From NCBI GenBank assembly GCA_944388995.1, contig CALXKN010000008.1:17160-81159 (forward strand): DNA of 64,000 nt, given 5' to 3'. The DNA comes from an uncultured Spirochaetota bacterium (GTDB taxonomy: Bacteria > Spirochaetota > Spirochaetia > JAFGXN01). The notes under the pieces were generated by a model that did no database searches, had not been told where the DNA came from, and saw only the letters and a list, made by a program, of their open reading frames with translations. A program made the position numbers and the translations under genes. Each line of letters opens with the position of its first letter. Position 1 is the stretch's first letter. This document shows positions 865-60,486 of this stretch, one piece after another.

Positions 865-2429
865 ATTTTTCTTTTGAAATACAGATAACCAAATGTTATC
901 GGCAAAAAAGCTCCGATCAGTAATAAGCAGGCATAAAGCGCTAAATTTAAAAAATTCCACTGTATTGTTTTCAGAACGGGAAGAACCTGAAAAAAAACTC
1001 CCGCCGCAATTAACAGAACAAGAACAGAACATCCCCATTTGAAAATCAAAACAAACGGAGACCGTCCTAAAACAATTTTATTAACCGTAAACATCTGTAG
1101 CAAATCATACGTTAAAAACGATACGACAGGAGCTGTACTGACCGTTAAAAGCTGCTTATCCGGCGTTTCAAAAATAAGCAGTCCGACAATGGAAAATGTA
1201 AAAATGACGACAGCCTCAATAACAGCGATATACTTTGTCTTTTTATAATTTCCGGTAATATCGATTAAAATTGTAAAAGGAATCCTTATGCTTCTGAAAT
1301 AGTAGTGCGCGGAAAACAGAACCATCAGTGAAATAATCGAATAATCGGGCTTGTCGTGCAGATACCACTGCATAAACGGATAAAATCCGAACAGCAGTAA
1401 TATTGTAAAACAAGTAATCAGAATAAATGAAAAATTTTCATATTTCTTATATATAAGAGAAAACCGTTCTTTATTTTCGTTAAGTAAATTCCCCAAAGAA
1501 TTTTGAGGCGCCCGCAGCATTAACCCGGCAATAATGCTCACATAACCGATTAGCAAATAATAGACGCTGTATACAGAAACCGTTTTTAATGTAGAGAAAA
1601 ATGACAGCAGAATCGGAATTGTATTAAAAACCAATAAATCCGCTATTTTATGCGGAAGCAAGTCTTTTGTCATTCCGAAAATAGATGTGTCTTTTTCTTC
1701 CTTGTGCCTGTATAAAAACGGATAATGTCTGCGTACATAAGTGACGGTTATCAGCGATGAAAGAAAAGAAATCCCCGCTTTACAACATAAAATAACAATA
1801 TATAAAAAATTTTTATCCGTTTCAGGAAAAAACCGAACCGAATAAAAAATAATAATTGAAACCAACGGAATTCCCAGTGATGAAAAAATTCCTAAAATTC
1901 GTTGAATATAACCCTTTTGATTTGCCGTCAAAAACAACGATTCGGGAGCGGAAATAAAATATCCGTATATAGAAGAAAGACCCAACAGTAAAATTGTTAA
2001 AAAAGGCAAAATAAAAGGGAATTGTCCGCTACGGACATCTTTTATAAGAAAAGGATATAAAAAAGCCGCTGTTATCAACAAGGTTGCAAAAACATACCCT
2101 ATGCGTCTCATAATAATTTTTGCGCCGTTAAAAACAGCGCAAATTCTCAGCGTATCCCGCTCCGCCAACGGCTTGTAAAAATGAAAAATAAAAGCAGATC
2201 CGACGCCTAATTCGATAATATTCAAATAAGCCAAAACCTGCCCGGCTGTGCTTTGCAGTCCGTTGATTTCATCTCCCAGAACGGATAAAAAAAGCCGTAC
2301 TTCAAAAAACTTCAGAAATACGGTTCCGATCATAAACAAAGTCGGTATGAAAAAATTATAAAAGGTGTTTTTCTTTCTGGACTCGCCGGCCATGGAATAG
2401 AGTAAAACACAGAAAGCCGATATTGTCAA
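840..2429 (-). CDS. polytopic membrane protein, oligosaccharide/polysaccharide flippase-like (MOP/Wzx-type, tentative)
   Basis: 529-aa ORF, hydrophobic throughout with a dozen or more predicted TM segments. The size and topology resemble Wzx/MOP exporters. No diagnostic motif was recognised. Confidence 0.45.
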   Translation of the reverse strand: MTISAFCVLLYSMAGESRKKNTFYNFFIPTLFMIGTVFLKFFEVRLFLSVLGDEINGLQSTAGQVLAYLNIIELGVGSAFIFHFYKPLAERDTLRICAVFNGAKIIMRRIGYVFATLLITAAFLYPFLIKDVRSGQFPFILPFLTILLLGLSSIYGYFISAPESLFLTANQKGYIQRILGIFSSLGIPLVSIIIFYSVRFFPETDKNFLYIVILCCKAGISFLSSLITVTYVRRHYPFLYRHKEEKDTSIFGMTKDLLPHKIADLLVFNTIPILLSFFSTLKTVSVYSVYYLLIGYVSIIAGLMLRAPQNSLGNLLNENKERFSLIYKKYENFSFILITCFTILLLFGFYPFMQWYLHDKPDYSIISLMVLFSAHYYFRSIRIPFTILIDITGNYKKTKYIAVIEAVVIFTFSIVGLLIFETPDKQLLTVSTAPVVSFLTYDLLQMFTVNKIVLGRSPFVLIFKWGCSVLVLLIAAGVFFQVLPVLKTIQWNFLNLALYACLLLIGAFLPITFGYLYFKRKIKKRRTVC

Positions 2430-2744
2430 TTATTGCAATAACAAGAAGTTCCGTTCAAGGCGCTCCGGTTACCGGCGTATATTCTCCGGTAAGGGAATAT
2501 TGTTTTACCCGGAAATGCCATGTTTATATGCCTCTCCGATAAACATGAAGAAACAAAAAAGAAAGAATTCTTTTTCCAATATCTTTAAACAAATAAGGAA
2601 TCATTTCTTCCTTTGTTTTCGGAAAAAAAGACCTTCGGAATACAGTTCTTTCTAATTTTGTTTGCGTCAAAATAAACAGACAGCAAAAGTTCGCCAAAGA
2701 AACCCACCAATAATCATACATTGCGGTTGCATTATATAATAAAA

Positions 2745-3389
2745 TTATTTCACCTGCAAGAGACTGATAATCGCCTGGTTGCGGTTTAAAACCGGATTGA
2801 CAAGAGCGTAGTCGTAAGCGGTGCGGCCGGAGTAGTCGGTGAGGGAAATGTCGGCGCCGCCGTTAATCAGAGCGATGATAATCTGCGGATTGTAACTTTC
2901 ATCGGCGGCAATCATCAGCGCGGTCTGACCGTCTTCGTCCTGTAAATCGGGATTGGCGCCCGCTTCCAACAGCGCGACAATGATATCCGGATTGCTATTT
3001 TCCTCAGCCGCACACATCAGCGCCGTTTCGCCGTCTTCTTCGACGGCATTCACGTCGGCTCCGAGACGGATCAGCGTTTTAATGATTTCGACATTACGGT
3101 TTTTTTCAGCCGCCATCATCAAAGCGGTCTTCTGATCTTCCTCGCGGGCGTTGACGTCGATTCCGAGTCCGACCAGCCATTCGATCACTTCGGGATGCTG
3201 ATTGCGTTCCGCGGCAATCATCAGTGCGGTTTCCATGTCATCAAAACGGAAAGTGAAGTCGGCTCCCGCGTCGCGGGCGGCCTGCAACTCCTTCACCGTT
3301 GCAACCCGCAGCAAATCTTCAAGATAATTTGCAAAAAGCAGAGACGGTAAAAATAAAAGAACTGCCAATAAGCCGACTTTTTTCATCAA
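2745..3389 (-). CDS. secreted ankyrin-repeat protein
   Basis: N-terminal signal peptide MMKKVGLLAVLLFLPSLLFA. This is followed by five or more units of the form TALMxAAxxNxNPxIIxxLxxxGADVN. Confidence 0.85.
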   Translation of the reverse strand: MMKKVGLLAVLLFLPSLLFANYLEDLLRVATVKELQAARDAGADFTFRFDDMETALMIAAERNQHPEVIEWLVGLGIDVNAREEDQKTALMMAAEKNRNVEIIKTLIRLGADVNAVEEDGETALMCAAEENSNPDIIVALLEAGANPDLQDEDGQTALMIAADESYNPQIIIALINGGADISLTDYSGRTAYDYALVNPVLNRNQAIISLLQVK

Positions 3390-23893: not shown

Positions 23894-23980
23894 GGAGAGA
23901 TGTCCGAGTGGTTTAAGGTGCACGCTTGGAAAGCGTGTGTACGGTAACACGTACCGGGGGTTCGAATCCCCCTCTTTCCG
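23894..23980 (+). tRNA. tRNA-Ser (anticodon GGA), long variable arm, no encoded CCA
   Basis: The acceptor stem GGAGAGA pairs with TCTTTCC. The anticodon stem-loop is CACGC-TTGGAAA-GCGTG. The T-arm is GGGGG-TTCGAAT-CCCCC, and the discriminator is G at 23980. Confidence 0.9.
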
Positions 23981-23989
23981 TTTCCCTTG

Positions 23990-24082
23990 GGTAAGACGGC
24001 AGACAAATCGGAGCGGCTCAACCCTGCCAGGTTCGGAAGAAAGCAACAGTCGGCTGTTTCCGGTTGTGCCTGTTTTGTTTTA
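23990..24082 (+). ncRNA. ffs: small (4.5S-type) SRP RNA; ends approximate
   Basis: CCTGCCAGGTTCGGAAGAAAGCAACAG matches the conserved domain IV core (CAGGuxCGGAAGgAAGCAgc) with a GGAA tetraloop. The flanks GGCAGAC..CGGCT and AGTCGGCTG..GTTGTGCC can pair. Its position just upstream of dnaX is common in bacteria. Confidence 0.6.
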
Positions 24083-24108
24083 TTCAAGGGTTTTCTTTGG
24101 GAAAAGCC

Positions 24109-51324: not shown

Positions 51325-53007
51325 GTGGAGTTTATGGGAAGTTTTTCTGTTCGGAAACGGAAACAGTTCGTTTGTTTTTCTGTATTAAAAGCGTTGACAG
51401 CAGCAGCCGTCTTAACGGTCATGTCGTGCGGCGGAGCCGTAGCTGTCGAAAATGTCAAAGTCACGCCGACGGCACTGTCGCTGGGCATCGGCGAAACGGC
51501 GGTTTTAAAAGCGGAAGTGGAACCGGCAGACGCCTCCGTGAACGCGGTGCTTTGGAGCGTTACGCAAGGAACGGCCGTCACGGTGGACGGATACGGCAAG
51601 GTCACGGCAATGACAGCCGGTACGGCAACCGTCACAGCGGAAACGGTCGACGGCGGTAAAACGGCTTCGTGTACGGTGACGGTCGGCAGTATCAGCGACG
51701 GAACAGGCGGAACAGACGGAACAGGAGAAACAGGCGGAACGGTGGCCGTTGAATCCGTTACGCTTGACCGTTCGTCGGTGACGCTGGGAGTCGGCAACTC
51801 GGTCACGCTGCAGGCAACGGTCGAACCGGCGGAAGCAGCCGCCACGGTGGTCTGGAGTCTGGCTTCCGGTGACGGCATTGTGACGGTCGACCAGAAAGGA
51901 CGTATTACGGCAAAAGCGATCGGTGCGGCAACTGTGGCTGTCGAAGCCGGCGGTGAAACGGCCACCTGTCTGGTTACGGTCATTCGGGAAGGTGTCATTG
52001 CCGATTTGGCTTTTATTGACGCGGTTGAAAGAGATATGCAATCAACTTGGGGCCTTAACGACGGTTGGGTTAAAGAAATTGACGGAACCGTACGGATGAA
52101 TTGGCGAAATATGAAAATCGTTAAAGAGGTTACAGAATTGTACTTGAGTAATGAAAATCTTTCTTCTTTGGACGGAATCGAATATTTTACCGGTTTGGAA
52201 TTGTTATCCTGCAGCAATAACCGGCTGACAGCATTGGATGTCGGAAATTTGCACAATTTAAAAACATTGTATTGCGGTAACAATCAGATAGAAACAGGGA
52301 AGCTGATTTTACCGCCGCAGCTTACCTATTTGAGCTGCTCTGATAACCGGTTGGAACAACTGGATGAAACGGTATTACCGGCCGGTCTGACGGAATTGTA
52401 TTGCCAAAATAATCCGCTGACAAAATTGGAAGTGGGAACGCTTACGAAACTGACAAAATTGGACTGTGCCGGAGGACAATTAACACGATTATCGGTAAAC
52501 GGATTAACCGAATTGACCTATCTGGCCTGCGGTTTTAACAATCTTTCTCATCTGGATATAGCAATGGGTAGAGAAGAAATCAATTCAAATCTGGAAACAT
52601 TGTACTGTCAGTATAATAATTTGGCTTATATAAACGTATATGAAATAAAGACATTGAAAGTTCTTGTCTGTGACAATAATAAAATCAGCAGTTTGAACCT
52701 ACCGTACTCGACTTCCACAGAGCAAAGTCCGTTGTACTATCTGACATGTTCCGGAAATAATATAAGCCGGCTGGATGTGGCAAAGTACATAAAGCTCAAC
52801 GCTCTGGATTGCGAAAAAAATGAAATAACCGAATTAAATATTACTAAGCTGACCGGTTTAACATCAACATCTTTTTTCCGCTGCGGAGGGCAGAGAAATG
52901 AAAGCAATCAAATGGTTTTACATCTGACAAGTGATCAGAATACTTTATGGACAAAGAATTGGAAAAAATATAACAACGGTGTCGAAACCCGAATCGCAGA
53001 GCCGTAA
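51325..53007 (+). CDS. surface lipoprotein with three Big_2 Ig-like domains and a C-terminal leucine-rich-repeat array
   Basis: Lipobox LTVMSCGG. There are three units of the form VxVxPxxxSLxxGETxxLxAxVEPAxA...TVTA. These are followed by about ten 22-23-aa LRRs (LxxLxCxxNxLxxLDV). Confidence 0.8.
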   Translation: MEFMGSFSVRKRKQFVCFSVLKALTAAAVLTVMSCGGAVAVENVKVTPTALSLGIGETAVLKAEVEPADASVNAVLWSVTQGTAVTVDGYGKVTAMTAGTATVTAETVDGGKTASCTVTVGSISDGTGGTDGTGETGGTVAVESVTLDRSSVTLGVGNSVTLQATVEPAEAAATVVWSLASGDGIVTVDQKGRITAKAIGAATVAVEAGGETATCLVTVIREGVIADLAFIDAVERDMQSTWGLNDGWVKEIDGTVRMNWRNMKIVKEVTELYLSNENLSSLDGIEYFTGLELLSCSNNRLTALDVGNLHNLKTLYCGNNQIETGKLILPPQLTYLSCSDNRLEQLDETVLPAGLTELYCQNNPLTKLEVGTLTKLTKLDCAGGQLTRLSVNGLTELTYLACGFNNLSHLDIAMGREEINSNLETLYCQYNNLAYINVYEIKTLKVLVCDNNKISSLNLPYSTSTEQSPLYYLTCSGNNISRLDVAKYIKLNALDCEKNEITELNITKLTGLTSTSFFRCGGQRNESNQMVLHLTSDQNTLWTKNWKKYNNGVETRIAEP

Positions 53008-53403: not shown

Positions 53404-55218
53404 CTATTCTTTTTTTTCGAAAACGTATCTGATGTCAAAACTGTCGAGAGCATCAAATGTCACATTTTCCCATTTATTGCGAACGGCCAAAAACGCATAC
53501 GGCCGCACCAGATAAACCAGCGGCACCTCTTCCCAAATGATTGACTGGTAACGGTCCCACAACGCTTTCGCCTTTTCGGCATCCGCGGTGTAGGAGGCTT
53601 CCGTATACAGACGGTCGATTTCGGCTTCCCATTCGGTTGCCGGCGTTTTCTGATTTGGATACCACATATGGAGGTTGCCGCCGCTCGGCCACACGTTGAC
53701 GCCCTGGCTCGGAAACAGGTTGCTGCCGGAAAGCGCAATCGACAACGACTGCCAATCGAACGAGTAGAGGAGGGAGTCTACCATTTTCGCAAAATCGACC
53801 GTGCGGATTTCCATCGCAATTCCCTGTTTTTTCAAATCATCGGCATAAATGTTGGCAATGTCCGACAGCTGCGGATTGTCAGCGGAAATCCAAAAGTCAA
53901 ACGCGACGGCGTTGCCCTCTTTATCGCGTAAAACGCCGGCAGAGTCCTTCTCCATTCCGATAGACGTCAACAGCGCGGCCGCTTTTTCCGGATTGTAAAA
54001 ATAGTTGAAAACAAGACTCTCCTCAAACACCGGCGAGGCTTCATGAAAAAAGTGGGTGACCGGTTTCGCTAAACCACGGTAAACATTGCGGATGATTTTT
54101 TCCCGATCCAGAAGGCAGCTCATTGCCTGCCGGAACTCTTTCTGTGAAAACCAATTATAATACTTGCGAGGCAGCGCACTGCGGTTAGGGTTTTGATTCC
54201 ACGTGATAAAAGCCGCTGTCGGAGCCGGACCGCCGTTAATCACCTCGTAACCGCCTTTTTCCTGTTCGGACAGCACGGAATCCAAATCGGCAGGCATCAC
54301 CGACAGCGTTTCCAGTTCGCCGTTTTTGAAAAGCAGCAGCTGCGTTGAAGGATTGGAAACGAACGAAAAACGCACCGTATCAAGGTAGGGCAGCCGCTGA
54401 CCGACGCTGTCTTCCAAAAAATAGTGCGGGTTGCGCCGCAGCTCCAAAACCAGTCCGGGCGTGTAACGGCTGATGTAAAACGGTCCGGCAGTCGGAACGG
54501 TGCTCGGATCGGTATTAATGGTAATAAAATCAATGACACGTTGAGAGCCGCCTTCCTTCTTTGCCGCCTCATAAAGAAACCGCGGCCCGATTTGCAGATT
54601 CGCCGCCAACAAAGGATCGGCGACAATTCGCGGAAAAGTCAGCCGAAACGACGAATCGGTCAGCTTCTCCGCGGTAATTTCGCCGCGGCTCCCGTCCGGC
54701 ATCGGCACAAACATCCCCGAATATTCAGCCATATTCAAAGCCGGATCTTTGATGATTTCCTCAATCCAAAAAACAGCGTCGTCGGCATTGAATGCGATTG
54801 TTTCGCCTGTCTTCGGCACAAACCAACACAAACCCGACTTAAATGTGAAATCAACCTCGGTGACCTGACGCTGCTCATCAACACGGACTTCAAAATCGGC
54901 AATGTGCCCCGACCATTTTTTTTCATAAACATCATATTCCAACAAATACGGACAAAGGTAACTCATCACAGCGCTCGTTGGTAAATCATTGATACGCGTC
55001 AAATTGAATGTCGACGGGTCCGACTCCATCGCCTCGTTCCAAACCCCACCGTAACGTCCGATTTTCCGCTCTCCGCCGCCCGGCCGAACCGTCATCTGCG
55101 ACAGAAAGCCGTTTTGGGCTTCCGCCCGCAAAGCCGCCGCCTCCTGCGTCGACACTTCCTTTTTCGGACCGCATGAAACTGCAGCCGCCGCCAAAACCGC
55201 CAAAAAAAAGCCCTTCAT
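53404..55218 (-). CDS. ABC transporter substrate-binding lipoprotein, family 5 (peptide/nickel, OppA/DppA-like)
   Basis: Lipobox AAAVSCGP. The 604-aa size and sequence texture fit SBP_bac_5. No cognate permease genes lie in the window. Confidence 0.75.
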   Translation of the reverse strand: MKGFFLAVLAAAAVSCGPKKEVSTQEAAALRAEAQNGFLSQMTVRPGGGERKIGRYGGVWNEAMESDPSTFNLTRINDLPTSAVMSYLCPYLLEYDVYEKKWSGHIADFEVRVDEQRQVTEVDFTFKSGLCWFVPKTGETIAFNADDAVFWIEEIIKDPALNMAEYSGMFVPMPDGSRGEITAEKLTDSSFRLTFPRIVADPLLAANLQIGPRFLYEAAKKEGGSQRVIDFITINTDPSTVPTAGPFYISRYTPGLVLELRRNPHYFLEDSVGQRLPYLDTVRFSFVSNPSTQLLLFKNGELETLSVMPADLDSVLSEQEKGGYEVINGGPAPTAAFITWNQNPNRSALPRKYYNWFSQKEFRQAMSCLLDREKIIRNVYRGLAKPVTHFFHEASPVFEESLVFNYFYNPEKAAALLTSIGMEKDSAGVLRDKEGNAVAFDFWISADNPQLSDIANIYADDLKKQGIAMEIRTVDFAKMVDSLLYSFDWQSLSIALSGSNLFPSQGVNVWPSGGNLHMWYPNQKTPATEWEAEIDRLYTEASYTADAEKAKALWDRYQSIIWEEVPLVYLVRPYAFLAVRNKWENVTFDALDSFDIRYVFEKKE

Positions 55219-55224
55219 GCCGCC

Positions 55225-55253
55225 ATAGTAAAAGAAAGCCGCCGTCCTGTCAA
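55225..55253 (-). promoter_or_regulatory. sigma70-type promoter abutting the start codon of the SBP gene (leaderless geometry)
   Basis: On the minus strand the sequence is TTGACA, 17 nt, TACTAT, GGCGGC, then ATG (55218). No Shine-Dalgarno is present. Confidence 0.5.
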
Positions 55254-55254
55254 C

Positions 55255-55421
55255 CTTTTCGTTTTTTGGGCGCGCGCCCCTGCGGGGCGCCGGGCTTTCC
55301 GCTGCAATTCGCAGCCTCCCTGCGCCTTCACCGCGGCAAAGCTGCCGCTTTGCCCTGCGCCTTCTCTCCGTCGGCAGCTCATTTCCGCTTCAATCCCTCG
55401 CGCCTTCGGCAAGGTGCTGCG
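55255..55421. repeat. GC-rich structured repeat, copy A (167 bp)
   Basis: Identical to 56426..56591 apart from one extra T. It contains the hairpins GCGCCCC-TGC-GGGGCGC, GCTGC-AATTC-GCAGC and GCGGCA-AAGC-TGCCGC, plus internal sub-repeats (TTTCCGCTnCAAT, CCTGCGCCTTC). Confidence 0.9.
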
Positions 55422-55631
55422 GAAATCGGCATTTTATTGTTTTAGTGTAAAAATGGGAACTTCCGAAAACAGTCAACCGTTTTTCGGAAAAATAACTGCC
55501 CTAAACGTATTTTTGTGTTATAATAACTCCAATAAAAATTTCGTATGGCAAACACAGCAAAAGCAAAACCCGAAAAAAACGCCGATTAAAACCGGAGCGG
55601 AAGATTCGGGAGAAACTTGGAGCGATCGGGT

Positions 55632-55922
55632 ATGAGCTGTAATCTTCCTGAAAGCGTGGTTTTCGATATTGAACGATTCGCAAAGAAAAACAAGATTAAA
55701 AAGGTCGTTCTGTTTGGCTCCCGCGCGAGGGGCAATCATTCGGAACGAAGCGACATTGATTTGGCGGTCAGCGGTGGAAACGCGGCGGATTTTTATTACG
55801 ACGTCAATGAAGAAGCGCGGACTCTTTTAATTTTTGATGTGGTCAATCTGGACGGACCGGTCAGCGGCGAACTGCGCGCCGAAATAGAAAAGGACGGAGT
55901 TTTACTCTATGAAGAAATTTGA
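55632..55922 (+). CDS. minimal nucleotidyltransferase (MNT), antitoxin partner of HEPN (HI0073-like)
   Basis: LFGSRARGNHSERSDIDLAV carries the GSxxRG...DxD NTase motif. The ATG at 55632 is used, whereas the track uses an upstream TTG. Confidence 0.85.
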   Translation: MSCNLPESVVFDIERFAKKNKIKKVVLFGSRARGNHSERSDIDLAVSGGNAADFYYDVNEEARTLLIFDVVNLDGPVSGELRAEIEKDGVLLYEEI

Positions 55923-56304
55923 CAATTTTTGCAAAGCGCTTTCGAATTTGCGGGAAGGATTGCAGCTTGAAGAACCGTATTCTGTCGTCGAACGGACGGG
56001 CATCATCGGGCTGTTTGAAATTTGCTTTGAGCAGGCATGGAAGCTGATGAAAGCGGTTTTGGAAGAGCACGGCAGGACAATCGACCGCGTCGGTTCCCCG
56101 AAAGTTGTCATTCAGCTTGCATATCAGAGCGGGATGATTGACGACAGCGAAAAATGGCTTTCCCTGCTCAGAGATCGAAATATCCTTGCTCACACCTACA
56201 GCGACGAAGATTCGCTTGCCGTGATTCGAACGTTAAAGACGGACTACGAGCCCTTGTTCGCCACCCTCAAAGAAGAGATTGAAACGCGCCGGCTTTCGGC
56301 GTAA
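55909..56304 (+). CDS. HEPN-domain toxin / nucleotidyltransferase substrate-binding protein (HI0074-like)
   Basis: 131 aa. It overlaps the MNT gene by 14 nt and carries the RNILAH Rx4H HEPN motif. Confidence 0.85.
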   Translation: MKKFDNFCKALSNLREGLQLEEPYSVVERTGIIGLFEICFEQAWKLMKAVLEEHGRTIDRVGSPKVVIQLAYQSGMIDDSEKWLSLLRDRNILAHTYSDEDSLAVIRTLKTDYEPLFATLKEEIETRRLSA

Positions 56305-56425
56305 AGCGGAGGCGCGAAACAACTGAGTCCGGTATGAAAGTAGAAGAAATGGGAGCGAAAACTCTTTCAATCGCCACTGATTCTGCCAGCATCTTTACAT
56401 TTGGCTCCGCCCCCCCTCGCTGAAT

Positions 56426-56591
56426 CTTTTCGTTTTTTGGGCGCGCGCCCCTGCGGGGCGCCGGGCTTTCCGCTGCAATTCGCAGCCTCCCGCGCCTTCA
56501 CCGCGGCAAAGCTGCCGCTTTGCCCTGCGCCTTCTCTCCGTCGGCAGCTCATTTCCGCTTCAATCCCTCGCGCCTTCGGCAAGGTGCTGCG
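56426..56591. repeat. GC-rich structured repeat, copy B (166 bp)
   Basis: A direct repeat of 55255..55421 in the same orientation, on the other side of the MNT/HEPN pair. Confidence 0.9.
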
Positions 56592-56655
56592 AAAGAGGCG
56601 TCTGAAAACTATAAATATGAGAACAATCTCATTTAAACCTCATCCATTTTTATCT

Positions 56656-59541
56656 TCAGCAGAAATGCGCCATATCGCGCGGATAATACTTGCAGTCGTG
56701 CAGTTCCGTGTCGTCAAGCCCCAGCGCCTTTACCAGGGCAGCAGACGCTATGCACCAGTACCCGCGGTACTGGTTCTTTTTCAAGTCAAATTTTGTTATA
56801 AGCCCATCAGTCTTCGTGTGAATCCACTGTCTTTTAAGATACCGTTTTAACCGCTCAACAGCCGCCGCTTTATTCTCTTTTGAAAGCAGTACCACCTCAT
56901 ATACCGCATTGGAATATTTCGGACAGCAGAGCTTTTCCGTGCGTATCTGCCAGGATGAGTCCAGCGTCTGCATAAGGAAATCCAGATAAAAATCCCGCTG
57001 TTCCGATTTTTGTAACAATTTTCGATAGTCATCCAGAAATTCAGTCCTGTTAAAAAGCATAATCAAGTACAGAACAGTTTCCATATCTTCATAATTATCA
57101 TTGCCGTCCTGTGCGTCTATCAAATGACGCAAAATCAGGTCTACTTCGGGAAGCAGCTCATGCATATCTAGCCCTAAGGAATATCCTGTATAAAATTTGT
57201 AAAATGCATAAGTATATATTTGATATTTAAACGCTCTTATGTCCGATTCTGCCTGATGTTCATCAGTCTCAATATTATGATGATGATACGTTTGCAGTAT
57301 TTCTTTCAGCTTTTGGGAATCTTTCTTGAATCTTTCGTCAAAATATTCCTGGGGTTTGACTTTATCCCTCATCATTCTTACCCGGGGCGGAAGTTTTTCC
57401 CGCTCCTCCTCCGTAAGAAATTGCGACAGTTCAACTAAAAAGGGCTCTATAAACTCCGACATGAGTTTCGCTTTATTCCCGGCTGAGTGATCATAAGGTA
57501 TTTCAATTGCCGATGTCCGCCGTTTCTCATCCTTCCACAAGCGTCCTATTTTAATAAATGAACCGCCTTTCTCAAATATGTACAACGATATAATCAGTGT
57601 GCAGTCTTCATACTCACATTCTATATAATCTTGCTCCCCCAAGCAGTAATCTCTGTAGGTAAGATTCCTCAAAGTGGTTATTATCCAGGGTATCCACTCT
57701 TTTTTGATGACAACACTATCCCATGACTGCCATGACCCGGTACCGAAACGGCTGCCGGTTCTGGTGTTGATTCGTAGTTCGCCTTTGGGACTCCAGGGCG
57801 TGGGAAGTTTTTTCCGTTCTTCTTCAGGAAGAAATTGTGACAAGGCCACTAAGAAGGGTTCTATAAATTCCGACATGATTTTCAAGTCGTTGTCCGATTC
57901 TTCAAAATTAAATTCGAAACGGGTATAACGCCACTTTGATGTCAGGGTATAACTCTGCTCATTTTTTGCATGCCAAGGAAAATAAGGTATTTCAAGTGCC
58001 GGCGATATCTTCTTTTCATCCTTCCACATGGGAAATATTTTTATATAGGAATACCCATCCCCTATAGGACAGATACTTAATGTTAATTGGCACGTTCCCC
58101 ATTTATTTATGATGCTTTCAACTCCTGTTTGATAATTATCAACACTAAGATTTCTCAATGTGCTTATTATCCAGGGTATCCGGTTTTTTTGTATAACAAT
58201 ACTTTTCTGCTGCCCGCCGCCGAATGTACCGGTTCTTTTTCCGTTAATCCGTAATTCATCGTTATCTAATTCCTCGAAGCTGTATTCAAAATCGGCATTC
58301 AGAGTTTTTTTGCTTTGATATTTTGTTATCTTCTCTATTTTGGCTACTATCGATTCGTCGTCCGACTTATCGGTTTCGCCTGCATACCAATCTTTGCCTT
58401 CGAGCCATACCCCGAACCAGAAAGGAAGATCCCCCCAAGGTCTTTGACAGAGTTCTTTCTTTTCGTTGACACTCCAGGGGGGCGACAGTTTACCCCTTTC
58501 TTCTTCCGTGAGAAACTGCGACAATGCAACCAGAAACGGCTCTATAAATTCCGACATTAATTTTGTTTCTTTCCGGGATACATAGGGTATTTCAATATTC
58601 CATGAACTCTTATTTTCATTTTTCCAGACAGGATAAATTTTGATATAGGAATAATCAAAGGGTACTACATTTATAATAAAACTTAAATTACAGTAACCGT
58701 ATTCATATACGAGAGTTTGCGGGGTGTTATAATCGTCGATAGTGGCATTTCTTAGTGTGGTAATGATCAAAGGTATCCACGCTTTTTTTATGATAATACT
58801 TTCCCATTGTCCCCTGCCGAATGAATCTGTTCGCTTTGCATTGATTTCCAACTCGTCATCATTTAATTCTTCATTGTCAGCTTTTTCCTCAAAATAAAAT
58901 TCGAAATGAACATTCCCGCCCTTACTGATCAGGTATTCTTTTTCTGCCAGTCCGTATTGTGTTATACCGGTCATTGCTTTGAAAAAATTGAGGGAACCGC
59001 TTTCCTTATCGGCAAAAATGATGTTCTGTTTTTTGTTTTCCCTCCAGGGAGGCGGAAGTTGTGTTCTTTCTTCTTCGGTAAGGAATTGTGCCAATTCAAC
59101 CAAAACAGGTTCGATAAATTCCGCCATTAACCTGCTTTTATCCCAGGGTAGATATGGTATTTCAATAAACGGTGTCGTTTTTTCCTTCGGTTCCTTCCAT
59201 ATGGGCATTATTTGAAGGGTCGCATAATCTTTGGCAGATGGTAAAAACTCCAGATTGACTTGACATTCTTCATATTCGTGAACGATATGTCTGTTCCAAA
59301 TCCCTTCCGGAAAGTTGATGTCGTAATCCTCAAAAGGAAGGGTTCTCAGTGTGGTGATAATCCGGGAAATCCACGCTTTTTTTATGACGATACAGTAATA
59401 CAAAGGCATACGTTCCGCTTCATCCAACAATGGAAAGGTTATTTTTTCGAAAATCCGTATTTCGTCGTTGTCCGATTCCTCAAAATGAAATTCAAAGGTA
59501 TCGGATATTTCGGCATCTCCCCTTCTGCCTGTAATGAACAT
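56656..59541 (-). CDS. 961-aa fusion protein: four tandem copies of an unrecognised ~150-190 aa module plus a C-terminal PoNi-like (DUF1910/DUF1911) immunity domain
   Basis: Repeats lie at about aa 15-166, 212-356, 417-523 (+541-583) and 588-719. They share FEFxFEExDNDELRIN, IIKKAWIPxIITTLRN, YIKIxPxWKDEKK, IEIPY and KLMSEFIEPFLVxLSQFLTEEERxKLPPPW. Residues 723-961 begin MRDKVKPQEYF and end YRGYWCIASAALVKALGLDDTELHDCKYYPRDMAHFC. Confidence 0.65.
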   Translation of the reverse strand: MFITGRRGDAEISDTFEFHFEESDNDEIRIFEKITFPLLDEAERMPLYYCIVIKKAWISRIITTLRTLPFEDYDINFPEGIWNRHIVHEYEECQVNLEFLPSAKDYATLQIMPIWKEPKEKTTPFIEIPYLPWDKSRLMAEFIEPVLVELAQFLTEEERTQLPPPWRENKKQNIIFADKESGSLNFFKAMTGITQYGLAEKEYLISKGGNVHFEFYFEEKADNEELNDDELEINAKRTDSFGRGQWESIIIKKAWIPLIITTLRNATIDDYNTPQTLVYEYGYCNLSFIINVVPFDYSYIKIYPVWKNENKSSWNIEIPYVSRKETKLMSEFIEPFLVALSQFLTEEERGKLSPPWSVNEKKELCQRPWGDLPFWFGVWLEGKDWYAGETDKSDDESIVAKIEKITKYQSKKTLNADFEYSFEELDNDELRINGKRTGTFGGGQQKSIVIQKNRIPWIISTLRNLSVDNYQTGVESIINKWGTCQLTLSICPIGDGYSYIKIFPMWKDEKKISPALEIPYFPWHAKNEQSYTLTSKWRYTRFEFNFEESDNDLKIMSEFIEPFLVALSQFLPEEERKKLPTPWSPKGELRINTRTGSRFGTGSWQSWDSVVIKKEWIPWIITTLRNLTYRDYCLGEQDYIECEYEDCTLIISLYIFEKGGSFIKIGRLWKDEKRRTSAIEIPYDHSAGNKAKLMSEFIEPFLVELSQFLTEEEREKLPPRVRMMRDKVKPQEYFDERFKKDSQKLKEILQTYHHHNIETDEHQAESDIRAFKYQIYTYAFYKFYTGYSLGLDMHELLPEVDLILRHLIDAQDGNDNYEDMETVLYLIMLFNRTEFLDDYRKLLQKSEQRDFYLDFLMQTLDSSWQIRTEKLCCPKYSNAVYEVVLLSKENKAAAVERLKRYLKRQWIHTKTDGLITKFDLKKNQYRGYWCIASAALVKALGLDDTELHDCKYYPRDMAHFC

Positions 59542-59780: not shown

Positions 59781-60486
59781 CTAACAGAAATGGGTCATAT
59801 CGTAGGGATAGTATTTACAGTCTTTCAGTTCCGTATCGTCAAGTTTGAGGGCTTTTACCAAAGCGGCGGCGGCGATGCACCAATACCCCCGGTACCACCC
59901 TATTTTCAGATCCCGGTTGGTTATAACACCTTCGGTTAATGACATAAACCACTGCCTTTTAAGATACCTCTTTAACCGCTGGACGGCTTCCGCCTTGTTT
60001 TCTTTTGACAGCATTACCACCTCGTATACCGAATTGGTCTCTTTGGGGCAACGAAGTTTTTCCGTACTTATCTGCCATGTGGAGTCTACTATCTGTACAA
60101 GATAATCCAGGTAAAAATCCCGCATTTTCGATTTTTGTAATAACTCCTTATATTCATCCAGAAATTCTGTCCGGTTAAAAAGAATGATTAAGTATATAAT
60201 CATTTCCATATCATCATAACCTCTGTCCCTTTCTCTCGTTGTATCAATCAAATTTCTTATGATAAGGTCTACTTCGGGAAGCAGCTCATTCATACCAAGC
60301 CCCAGGGAATAGCCTGCATAAAATTTACAAGCTGCTTCCATATATATGTGATATTTAAACGACCATACATTATATTTTTCCGGATGGCTTATTCTCTTCA
60401 TATTTACTCATCCGTTCAGCAAGATCAGACGCATCCTTATTATATCTTTCCCTAAAATATTCTTCTGTTTTTATGGTGTCTCTCAT
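59781..60486 (-). pseudogene. PoNi-like (DUF1910/DUF1911) immunity gene, apparently split by a 1-nt frameshift; the 206-aa ORF 59781..60401 may still be expressed
   Basis: ORF 59781..60401 aligns with aa 770-961 of the 961-aa protein. The missing N-terminus (MRDTIKTEEYFRERYNKDASDLAERMSKY) is encoded at 60486..60400 in another frame and stops at 60370. Confidence 0.6.

Follow-up and report, generated by a model that had tools for sequence, protein, structure and literature searches.

Flavo-1 (Rfam RF01705) was reported as a candidate small RNA (sRNA) of the Bacteroidetes, found in Bacteroidota and presented with no function (Weinberg et al., 2010; PMC2864571), and it has been a function-unknown Rfam motif since 2010. 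A published transcriptome of Flavobacterium found Flavo-1 matches in sense and antisense orientation as well as beyond the transcribed regions (PMC9723704). Repeats of the miniature inverted-repeat transposable element (MITE) type are reported to be abundant in Spirochaetes (PMC11602168). Here, we analyzed a 64-kb stretch of DNA from an uncultured Spirochaetota bacterium (contig CALXKN010000008.1; hereafter the window), in which two near-identical GC-rich direct repeats, copy A and copy B, enclose a predicted toxin–antitoxin (TA) gene pair of the MNT/HEPN type. The best explanation of the whole arrangement, which we consider probable, is that the repeats are Flavo-1-class elements that have spread recently, and that the TA pair is an accessory module lost by recombination between the two copies.

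The repeats measure 171 nt (copy A) and 170 nt (copy B) and are 99.3% identical; their coordinates and those of all other features are collected in Table 1. Their bounds are slightly wider than those of a first-pass annotation made from the sequence alone (55255-55421 and 56426-56591). Within these narrower bounds, the T at 55321 is indeed the sole difference between the copies, as that annotation had stated, and the three bases added at the 5' edge bring one further C/T mismatch (55254 versus 56425). The window contains exactly two occurrences of a 28-mer taken from the repeat, and 100 shuffles contain none. Both copies are more GC-rich (0.64-0.67; about 68% in the comparison with Flavo-1) than their flanks (about 0.38-0.52). 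The three short perfect hairpins that had been described, GCGCCCC/GGGGCGC (55275-55291), GCTGC/GCAGC, and GCGGCA/TGCCGC, are present in the sequence as well as in the minimum free energy (MFE) fold, and the internal sub-repeat TTTCCGCTNCAAT occurs twice within each copy. The repeat starts within 2 nt of the point where similarity to an independent copy (L040, 95-96% identical) starts, and this similarity ends 11 nt before the 3' end of the repeat, inside an A-rich tail. Since the repeat boundaries match those of the similarity to L040, A and B represent two complete elements and not an arbitrary segment. At least nine metagenome assemblies, independent of one another, show the same arrangement with both copies; a number of contigs end within the repeat, which is to be expected as it exceeds the assembler k-mer.

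Using a relaxed Rfam scan, we found that both copies align on the minus strand to the full RF01705 model (positions 1-76) with 21.6 bits (E 0.17), and no other Rfam family besides Flavo-1 scored within the repeats. The copies fall short of the gathering threshold of the family (42 bits) because their central insert, which has sub-repeats of its own, comprises 71-73 nt, whereas the model has about 26 nt there. The window copies agree with the RF01705 consensus in the conserved strings GAUUGAAGCGGAAAU ... AUUGCAGCGGAAAGC, and in the printed RF01705 alignment every core pair is standard and both boxes fit the consensus. Flavobacterium copies reach 70-73 bits, and copies from Bacteroidota metagenome-assembled genomes (MAGs; L054, L061) reach 59-62 bits, whereas the spirochaete copies stay below the threshold. 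The Bacteroidota-MAG copies show the same P1/P3 architecture as the window copies, GCGnnAGGG...GCCCGA-hairpin-nnCGCCCAAA. The element resembles Flavo-1 in its two conserved boxes (GAUUGnAGCGGAAAU ... AUUGnAGCGGAAAGC), which form a paired helix interrupted by purine-rich internal loops and have a variable hairpin between them; it is likewise multi-copy and intergenic, and our scan adds copies in Spirochaetes. Besides the long insert, the GC content, and the low score, the window copies differ from RF01705 in that P1 and P3 are not among the paired positions of its printed structure line. To judge by its sequence, the window element is therefore a long-insert, GC-rich relative of the known Flavo-1 that stays outside the Rfam family only on score. 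The first-pass annotation had offered a structured non-coding RNA or REP-like element as one of two readings; the structured, dispersed repeat stands, whereas its novelty does not, since the element is a relative of a known RNA motif, and a match of this kind was among the outcomes that the annotation itself had named as refuting.

All copies of type B share the layout, read on the minus strand, GCGnnAGGG, AUUGnAGCGGAAAU, a variable hairpin insert, AUUGnAGCGGAAA, GCCCGr, a small variable hairpin, nnCGCCC, and AAA. The architecture of the family is a three-way junction formed by a helix P1 (GCGnn/nnCGC), a long rod P2, an apical insert, a hairpin P3, and a GCCC-AAA tail. The base of P2 consists of two near-invariant boxes, AUUGnAGCGGAAA, paired with each other; their constancy among the matches is partly by design, as the boxes were fixed in the search pattern described below. 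The pairing of box 2 with box 1 yields a pseudo-symmetric helix with purine-rich 3x3 internal loops, and the apical insert varies between 26 and 105 nt across the family. The two 'nn' positions of P1 covary (GCGCAA/UUGCGC, GCGUU/AACGC, GCGUG/CACGC, GCGAU/AUCGC, GCGCG/CGCGC), and GGG/CCC is swapped for GCG/CGC or AGG/CCU in some copies.

Covariation was assessed on 28 diverse copies that were aligned with unguided MAFFT and folded with RNAalifold. RNAalifold recovered P1, P2a (the base of P2), the GC pairs of the boxes, and P3, with many double changes and almost no broken pairs. Compensatory changes in P1 are illustrated by one pair that is CG in 13 copies, UA in 11, and AU in 2, and by the next pair, which is GC in 11, UA in 7, and AU in 6. 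Within the box helix, the supported pairs are those of alignment columns 13-14/122-123, 18-19/117-118, and 23-25/111-113. In P3 (helix 5), the stem is kept while its sequence varies among family members by CG, GC, and UA swaps. An explicit pair count found 84% of the cells paired and gave a covariation score of 0.316, compared to 0.113 in shuffles (0 of 500 shuffles as high) and 0.06-0.16 in controls in which the partners were slid by 1-3 columns. RNAalifold and the pair count thus both support a conserved structure, and the GC-rich, long-insert spirochaete subclass with its outer helix and side hairpin is new and well supported by covariation. The box symmetry with its 3x3 purine loops, a few G-U pairs, and the orientation of the Rfam model point to the minus strand as the probable functional strand. 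The fold fits RNA and single-stranded DNA alike, and the data cannot tell the two apart.

To survey the family, we scanned one genome per species with the pattern ATTGNAGCGGAAA-N50-80-ATTGNAGCGGAAA, which matched more than 108 stretches, a few of them obvious false positives in coding repeats. At least 14 loci are located in the MAG 'uncultured Spirochaetes BRZ_M__bin37'; one contig of this MAG shares 96-97% identity with the flanks of the window, and the MAG therefore represents the same species as the window or a close relative. Among the matches listed, dozens of copies come from the Spirochaetaceae MAG CBDDOY01 and others from Leptospira, termite-gut spirochaetes, Flavobacterium, and other Bacteroidota. 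A covariance model built across spirochaete and Bacteroidota copies (R1) found 81 copies in 523 kb of retrieved loci, with spirochaete copies scoring 40-98 bits. In the window, R1 detected only copy A (93.1 bits, core 55265-55405, minus strand; a score that is partly by construction, as copy A is in the training alignment) and copy B (91.9 bits, core 56436-56575, minus strand), and the next match had 13 bits. The element is a dispersed family and not a local duplication. The copies are mostly solitary and occur in both orientations. In CBDDOY01, 31 of the 42 copies lie downstream of a co-oriented gene according to heuristic open reading frame (ORF) calls.

Several further properties of individual copies were observed. 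At two loci (L120, 528-662; L062, 1438-1802; termite-gut Spirochaetia MAG), a box lies inside or beside another copy, indicating nested or tandem copies; R1 aligns L062 1550-1802 with a very long insert. Otherwise near-identical CBDDOY01 copies differ in the poly-G tract of the apical loop of the insert, which ranges from about 6 to 16 G. This length variation could reflect either a hypermutable tract or homopolymer errors of long-read sequencing. Furthermore, CBDDOY01 copies adjoin SBP_bac_5 paralogues, as in the window, and in L070 two such paralogues flank one copy. This adjacency may be due to chance, as spirochaetes have many genes for solute-binding proteins (SBPs).

Sixteen copies from the species of the window have a median pairwise identity of 85.8%. 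Three pairs are near-identical: L087/L102 (100% over the core defined by R1), A/B, and L025/L056 (98%). In BRZ_M__bin37, L087 4390-4564 and L102 7095-7269 share 175 nt at 99.4% and have unrelated flanks on both sides. Because these copies are near-identical amid unrelated flanks, they show that the element was copied and spread recently in this species. In the same MAG, L102 and L056 have at least 75 nt of upstream flank in common but differ in the P3 hairpin and the downstream flank. Taken together, L087, L102, and L056 suggest copying of the element as well as exchange of parts between copies.

No target-site duplication was detected at the window copies, at L087/L102, or at the CBDDOY01 copies; the conserved flanks of the latter represent a further AU-rich extension of the basal stem. 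Complementarity between the ends of the element is confined to the hairpin. When 367 ORFs located up to 1.5 kb from copies were compared all-against-all by BLASTP, no recurrent protein or transposase emerged and the matches were only spurious ORFs over the element and ordinary paralogues, and a transposase beside the copies was rejected on this ground. No integrase or transposase was called in about 9-10 kb on the SBP side and about 6 kb on the side of the PoNi-type gene that flanks copy B. These gene tables and the flank comparisons agree with the first-pass annotation, which had seen neither a recombinase nor a target duplication. Blastn of the whole unit against plasmid and phage collections gave no match in either, and a plasmid or phage origin of the unit was rejected on this result. 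The weakest step of our interpretation concerns what the element does: most likely it acts as a selfish or structural hairpin of REP, ERIC, or MITE type in transcribed intergenic regions. For the conserved boxes with their pseudo-symmetry, a trans-acting protein is the presumed binding partner, and the element would have no specific link to TA function.

An empty site is seen in two contigs from independent assemblies, L099 (MAG BRZ_M__bin37, about 3% diverged) and L126 (sample BRZ_FB), which have the same flanks as the window, one repeat, and no TA genes. In both, the order is the PoNi stop codon, 63 nt, one copy, and the SBP promoter. TA-less alleles with exactly one copy therefore exist. 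The PoNi protein of L126 is identical to that of the window, and the contig matches the window at 100% over 2,949 nt on the PoNi side and shows seven single-nucleotide polymorphisms (SNPs) in 1,848 nt on the SBP side, a stretch over which all TA-carrying contigs are identical. Its own SNPs on the SBP side mark L126 as a distinct strain and argue against a collapsed assembly. The single copy of L126 combines a B-type outer flank, the A-type indel state, and an A-type outer flank. A one-copy allele without the TA pair is as expected if two direct copies undergo a crossover. Homologous recombination acts efficiently on direct repeats of 171 nt at 99% identity. RecA-type recombination between the copies would loop out the TA pair together with one copy; conversely, a circle that re-enters at a resident copy in Campbell fashion would rebuild the bracket. 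The comparison shows that the MNT/HEPN pair is a 1.0-kb accessory segment between directly oriented copies, at the edge of a strain-variable island.

The first-pass annotation had proposed that the TA module was captured or is mobilized by recombination between copies of a repeat element. This reading and that of a structured repeat are compatible, and each holds in part. Recombination accounts for the loss of the pair in L099 and L126, whereas capture or movement to other sites finds no support: no second site carrying the TA pair of the window was found, its nearest relatives lie in restriction–modification (R-M) operons, and other direct pairs of the element hold no TA-like cargo. In CBDDOY01, five paired loci with mixed contents, assigned by eye, led us to reject the idea that direct pairs generally carry accessory cargo; they include a putative nuclease/transposase-like ORF, an integrase-core fragment, an aminotransferase gene with a tRNA gene, and a CCA-adding-type enzyme gene, and the number of close pairs is about that predicted from density. 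We found no evidence for a dedicated cassette-mobilizing system. Recombination between the copies on either side appears to account for loss of the TA pair and perhaps for its return; genome plasticity of this kind is known, and the locus does not represent a new system.

A number of observations weigh against this interpretation. The empty-site alleles come from short-read metagenome assemblies, one of them at 3.9x coverage, and an assembler could in principle skip the repeat-TA-repeat loop; no circular excision product or re-integration was seen. In L138, a 1,047-bp contig from another sample, the TA pair is 96.7% identical and its junction to copy A is the same as in the window, but a different, 3'-truncated copy of the family lies on the HEPN side. 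Because of this difference, the bracket is older than the near-identity of A and B and involved more than one event. With regard to the element itself, the repeat has weak MFE z-scores (plus strand, -1.9; minus strand, -1.3), the invariance of the boxes is partly by construction, and the orientation relative to genes is biased in CBDDOY01 only.

Part of this evidence could be explained by two independent insertions of an active repeat around a pre-existing TA pair with no recombination between them, the TA-less contigs being either assembly artefacts or unrelated alleles swapped via flanking homology. The element does spread alone, as L087 and L102 show, each repeat is a complete element, L138 has a different family member on one side, and the low coverage of one empty-site contig would fit an artefact. 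We nevertheless consider this scenario unlikely, since L099 and L126 join exactly one copy to both outer flanks, L126 has its own SNPs on one flank, and the other assemblies of the sample series resolved the loop or broke at it but never skipped it; moreover, repeats of such length and identity recombine efficiently. That the two copies arose by a simple tandem or segmental duplication confined to this locus, as the near-identity of A and B might suggest, is extremely improbable: the TA segment is not duplicated, and both the dispersed copies, at no fewer than 14 loci in the MAG of the species and in many other genomes, and the coincidence of repeat and element boundaries refute it.

It is also conceivable that the element is a dedicated recombination site, analogous to attC or to the MITE pairs of integron mobilization units (IMUs), at which a trans-acting recombinase or transposase moves cassettes such as the TA pair. 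It is superficially attC-like in folding as a hairpin whose internal loops are conserved and whose terminal structure varies, TA genes are common integron cassettes, presence or absence is precise with one copy left, and the pseudo-two-fold symmetry of the boxes would suit a dimeric binding protein. We regard this as very unlikely, given that RYYYAAC/GTTRRRY cores were not seen by eye (no pattern search was run), that no integrase or transposase was called in the stretches on the SBP and PoNi sides and no protein family recurs beside the copies in the neighborhoods searched, that the copies are mostly solitary and in both orientations, that other direct pairs hold ordinary cargo such as the aminotransferase with tRNA and the CCA-adding-type enzyme, that the relatives of the TA pair are not beside such elements, and that the plasmid and phage collections gave no match. 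An integron cassette proper was rejected on the missing cores, the absence of an integrase from the gene tables, and the lack of a co-oriented array. Only slightly less doubtful is the broader idea that the elements may go beyond passive hairpin repeats and that the boxes, strongly conserved in both Bacteroidota and Spirochaetota, could be the site of a conserved dimeric trans-acting protein, a recombinase or HUH-type enzyme, that spreads the element and lets pairs capture and excise cassettes; if true, the elements would belong to a cassette system of the integron or IMU kind that has no linked integrase. Just as improbable as a dedicated site is a role of the repeats as cis- or trans-acting regulatory RNAs of the TA or neighboring genes, duplicated so that each junction has one, be it as terminator or insulator between HEPN and PoNi, as antisense source, or as 5' leader of the SBP gene. 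Copy B does lie where the 3' ends of HEPN and PoNi converge and copy A between divergent promoters, weak promoter-like hexamers precede each copy on the sense strand (56637-56608 and 55459-55431), and the orientation bias in CBDDOY01 would agree with such a role. Yet no terminator-like site was scored within either copy on either strand, which also led us to reject P3 as a terminator; the listed plus-strand site at 55411-55435 overlaps only the last 12 nt of copy A and does not correspond to P3. Moreover, the tail of the sense strand is A-rich and not U-rich, copies of the element are found at numerous unrelated loci whatever the gene context, and Flavo-1 matches in Flavobacterium include antisense and untranscribed positions (PMC9723704). 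Loss of an accessory TA pair by recombination between two recently spread Flavo-1-class repeats thus remains our preferred explanation.

Pfam matches confirm both genes of the enclosed pair, and the repeats enclose only this module, within 1,000 bp of unique sequence, as the first-pass annotation had described; the extended -10 element TGTTATAAT upstream of MNT was likewise confirmed in the sequence. MNT carries the motifs GSRARG...SDID and HEPN the motif RNILAH (Rx4H), and the HEPN gene overlaps MNT by 14 nt. By domains, motifs, and gene overlap, the pair qualifies as a predicted MNT-HEPN type VII TA system of the HI0073/HI0074 kind. It resembles HI0073/HI0074 and HepT/MntA of type VII in its Pfam domains, its GSx(n)DxD and Rx4H motifs, and the order of an MNT-first overlapping pair. 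The closest HEPN relatives are about 70% identical and located inside type I R-M operons of the order hsdM-MNT-HEPN-hsdS, whereas the pair of the window stands alone with its own promoter; its TA function is predicted from sequence. No element boxes were found within 4 kb of the nearest R-M-embedded relatives, and the notion that the TA pair travels with the repeat was rejected on the basis of these box-free relatives. Homology to them begins about 38 nt before the ATG of MNT, which could be an hsdM remnant or simply an N-terminal extension of MNT.

The site itself is a strain-variable hot spot. On one side, copy A abuts the divergent promoter of the SBP gene (TTGACA-17-TACTAT), as previously annotated. 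Beyond the TA pair, genes for PoNi, Imm74, and an Endonuclease_NS_2 (nuclease) fragment constitute an immunity island; the Imm74 and nuclease fragments are found in related contigs. In sister species, whose SBPs are 79-81% identical, purL lies 70 nt upstream of the SBP gene and there is neither island nor element. In a third allele, L142 (ENA ERZ16268042 scaffold_8614, 1691-3218), with an SBP gene 96.6% identical to that of the window, a C-terminal HsdR fragment of a type I R-M system lies 100 nt upstream of the SBP gene. Homology of L142 to the window stops at 55258, at copy A's edge and the -35 box, and this allele retains only a GCGCCCCAAAGG remnant that resembles the tail of the element.

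Some features of the neighboring genes were also seen. The TACTAT -10 box of the SBP gene ends 6 nt before the annotated ATG (55216-55253, minus strand), and the SBP mRNA may therefore be leaderless; other assemblies call a 599-aa SBP product that starts five codons later. The adjacent Big_2/LRR surface-protein gene (51325-53007) encodes 528 versus 557 aa between strains (L002/L005) and is largely replaced in L099, where about 3.4 kb take the place of 0.9 kb. Within the PoNi ORF there are three internal repeats, each about 490-600 nt long (families D1, D3, D5, D7), and a second PoNi_C gene follows it (59781-60401, minus strand). The only Rfam matches of the window at the gathering threshold are a tRNA gene (23894-23980, plus strand) and, behind it, a small signal recognition particle (SRP) RNA (23990-24087, plus strand).

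Table 1. Features of the repeat-bracketed locus and related copies; positions refer to the window unless a contig handle (L) is given.
Feature	Position	Strand	Remarks
Repeat copy A	55252-55422	-	Full-length Flavo-1-class element; sense is the window minus strand; just upstream of the SBP promoter
Repeat copy B	56423-56592	-	63 nt past the PoNi stop, same strand; 118 nt past the HEPN stop, opposite strand
Box 1, copy A	55382-55394	-	AUUGAAGCGGAAA in the sense strand; copy B counterpart 56552-56564
Box 2, copy A	55296-55308	-	AUUGCAGCGGAAA; copy B counterpart 56467-56479; from Rfam alignment and covariation
P3 hairpin, copy A	55275-55291	-	GCGCCCC-TGC-GGGGCGC on the plus strand; copy B counterpart 56446-56462
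Unique segment	55423-56422	+	1,000 bp: TA promoter, MNT, HEPN, 118 nt of 3' flank
Extended -10-like element TGTTATAAT	55516-55524	+	Upstream of MNT; read from the sequence, not listed by the promoter scan
MNT-type nucleotidyltransferase (predicted antitoxin), 96 aa	55632-55922	+	PF18765, E 3.4e-16; PF01909, E 5e-10
HEPN/HI0074-type protein (predicted toxin), 131 aa	55909-56304	+	PF08780, E 3.4e-29; PF01934 (HepT-like), E 1.2e-5
Sigma-70-like SBP promoter TTGACA-17-TACTAT	55225-55253	-	Promoter scan; first two bases inside copy A
SBP_bac_5 lipoprotein gene	53404-55218	-	Conserved flank of the variable site
PoNi-type immunity-like protein, 961 aa, internal repeats	56656-59541	-	Other flank; start of the polymorphic-toxin immunity island
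Copies with variable poly-G	L017 7552-7645; L063 1365-1459; L119 6660-6752		MAG CBDDOY01
Copies beside SBP_bac_5	L070 2207-5964; L119 6817-7998; L099 436-2244		

For the TA pair, this is an ordinary finding, an accessory module at the edge of a variable immunity/defense island, and it is the function of the repeat family and its mobilizing enzyme, rather than the TA bracket, that are of lasting interest. To Flavo-1, the locus adds a spirochaete subclass, recent spread within a genome, and a strain-variable TA pair flanked by two copies, which points to the family as a mobile, recombinogenic repeat and not a dedicated sRNA gene. The boxes, the strand, and the polymorphic loci provide handles for finding a trans-acting partner of the family.

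Among known systems that bracket cargo, integron cassettes and IMUs also hold small accessory cargo between two structured repeats with precise presence or absence. The unit in the window differs from the former in that no attC cores were seen by eye, no IntI appears in the gene tables, and the copies form no co-oriented arrays, and from MITE-bracketed units in that no target-site duplication surrounds it. One repeat copy persists at the empty site, as homologous recombination would leave it and the insertion of a composite unit would not. With repetitive extragenic palindromes (REPs) and bacterial interspersed mosaic elements (BIMEs), enterobacterial repetitive intergenic consensus (ERIC) sequences, and bacterial MITEs, the element shares its nature as a non-coding intergenic hairpin, a copy number in the tens per genome, the near-identity of copies from unrelated loci, and their use as substrates for ectopic recombination and deletion. 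REPs are imperfect palindromes of 20-40 nt, whereas the element of the window comprises 140-175 nt and has no GTAG/CGTC head; BLASTP of the neighboring ORFs identified no REP-associated tyrosine transposase (RAYT) or other transposase beside its copies. With regard to MITEs, no clear terminal inverted repeats were seen beyond the hairpin and no target-site duplication was detected at the copies compared; for a MITE, conservation of the boxes in two phyla is unusual.

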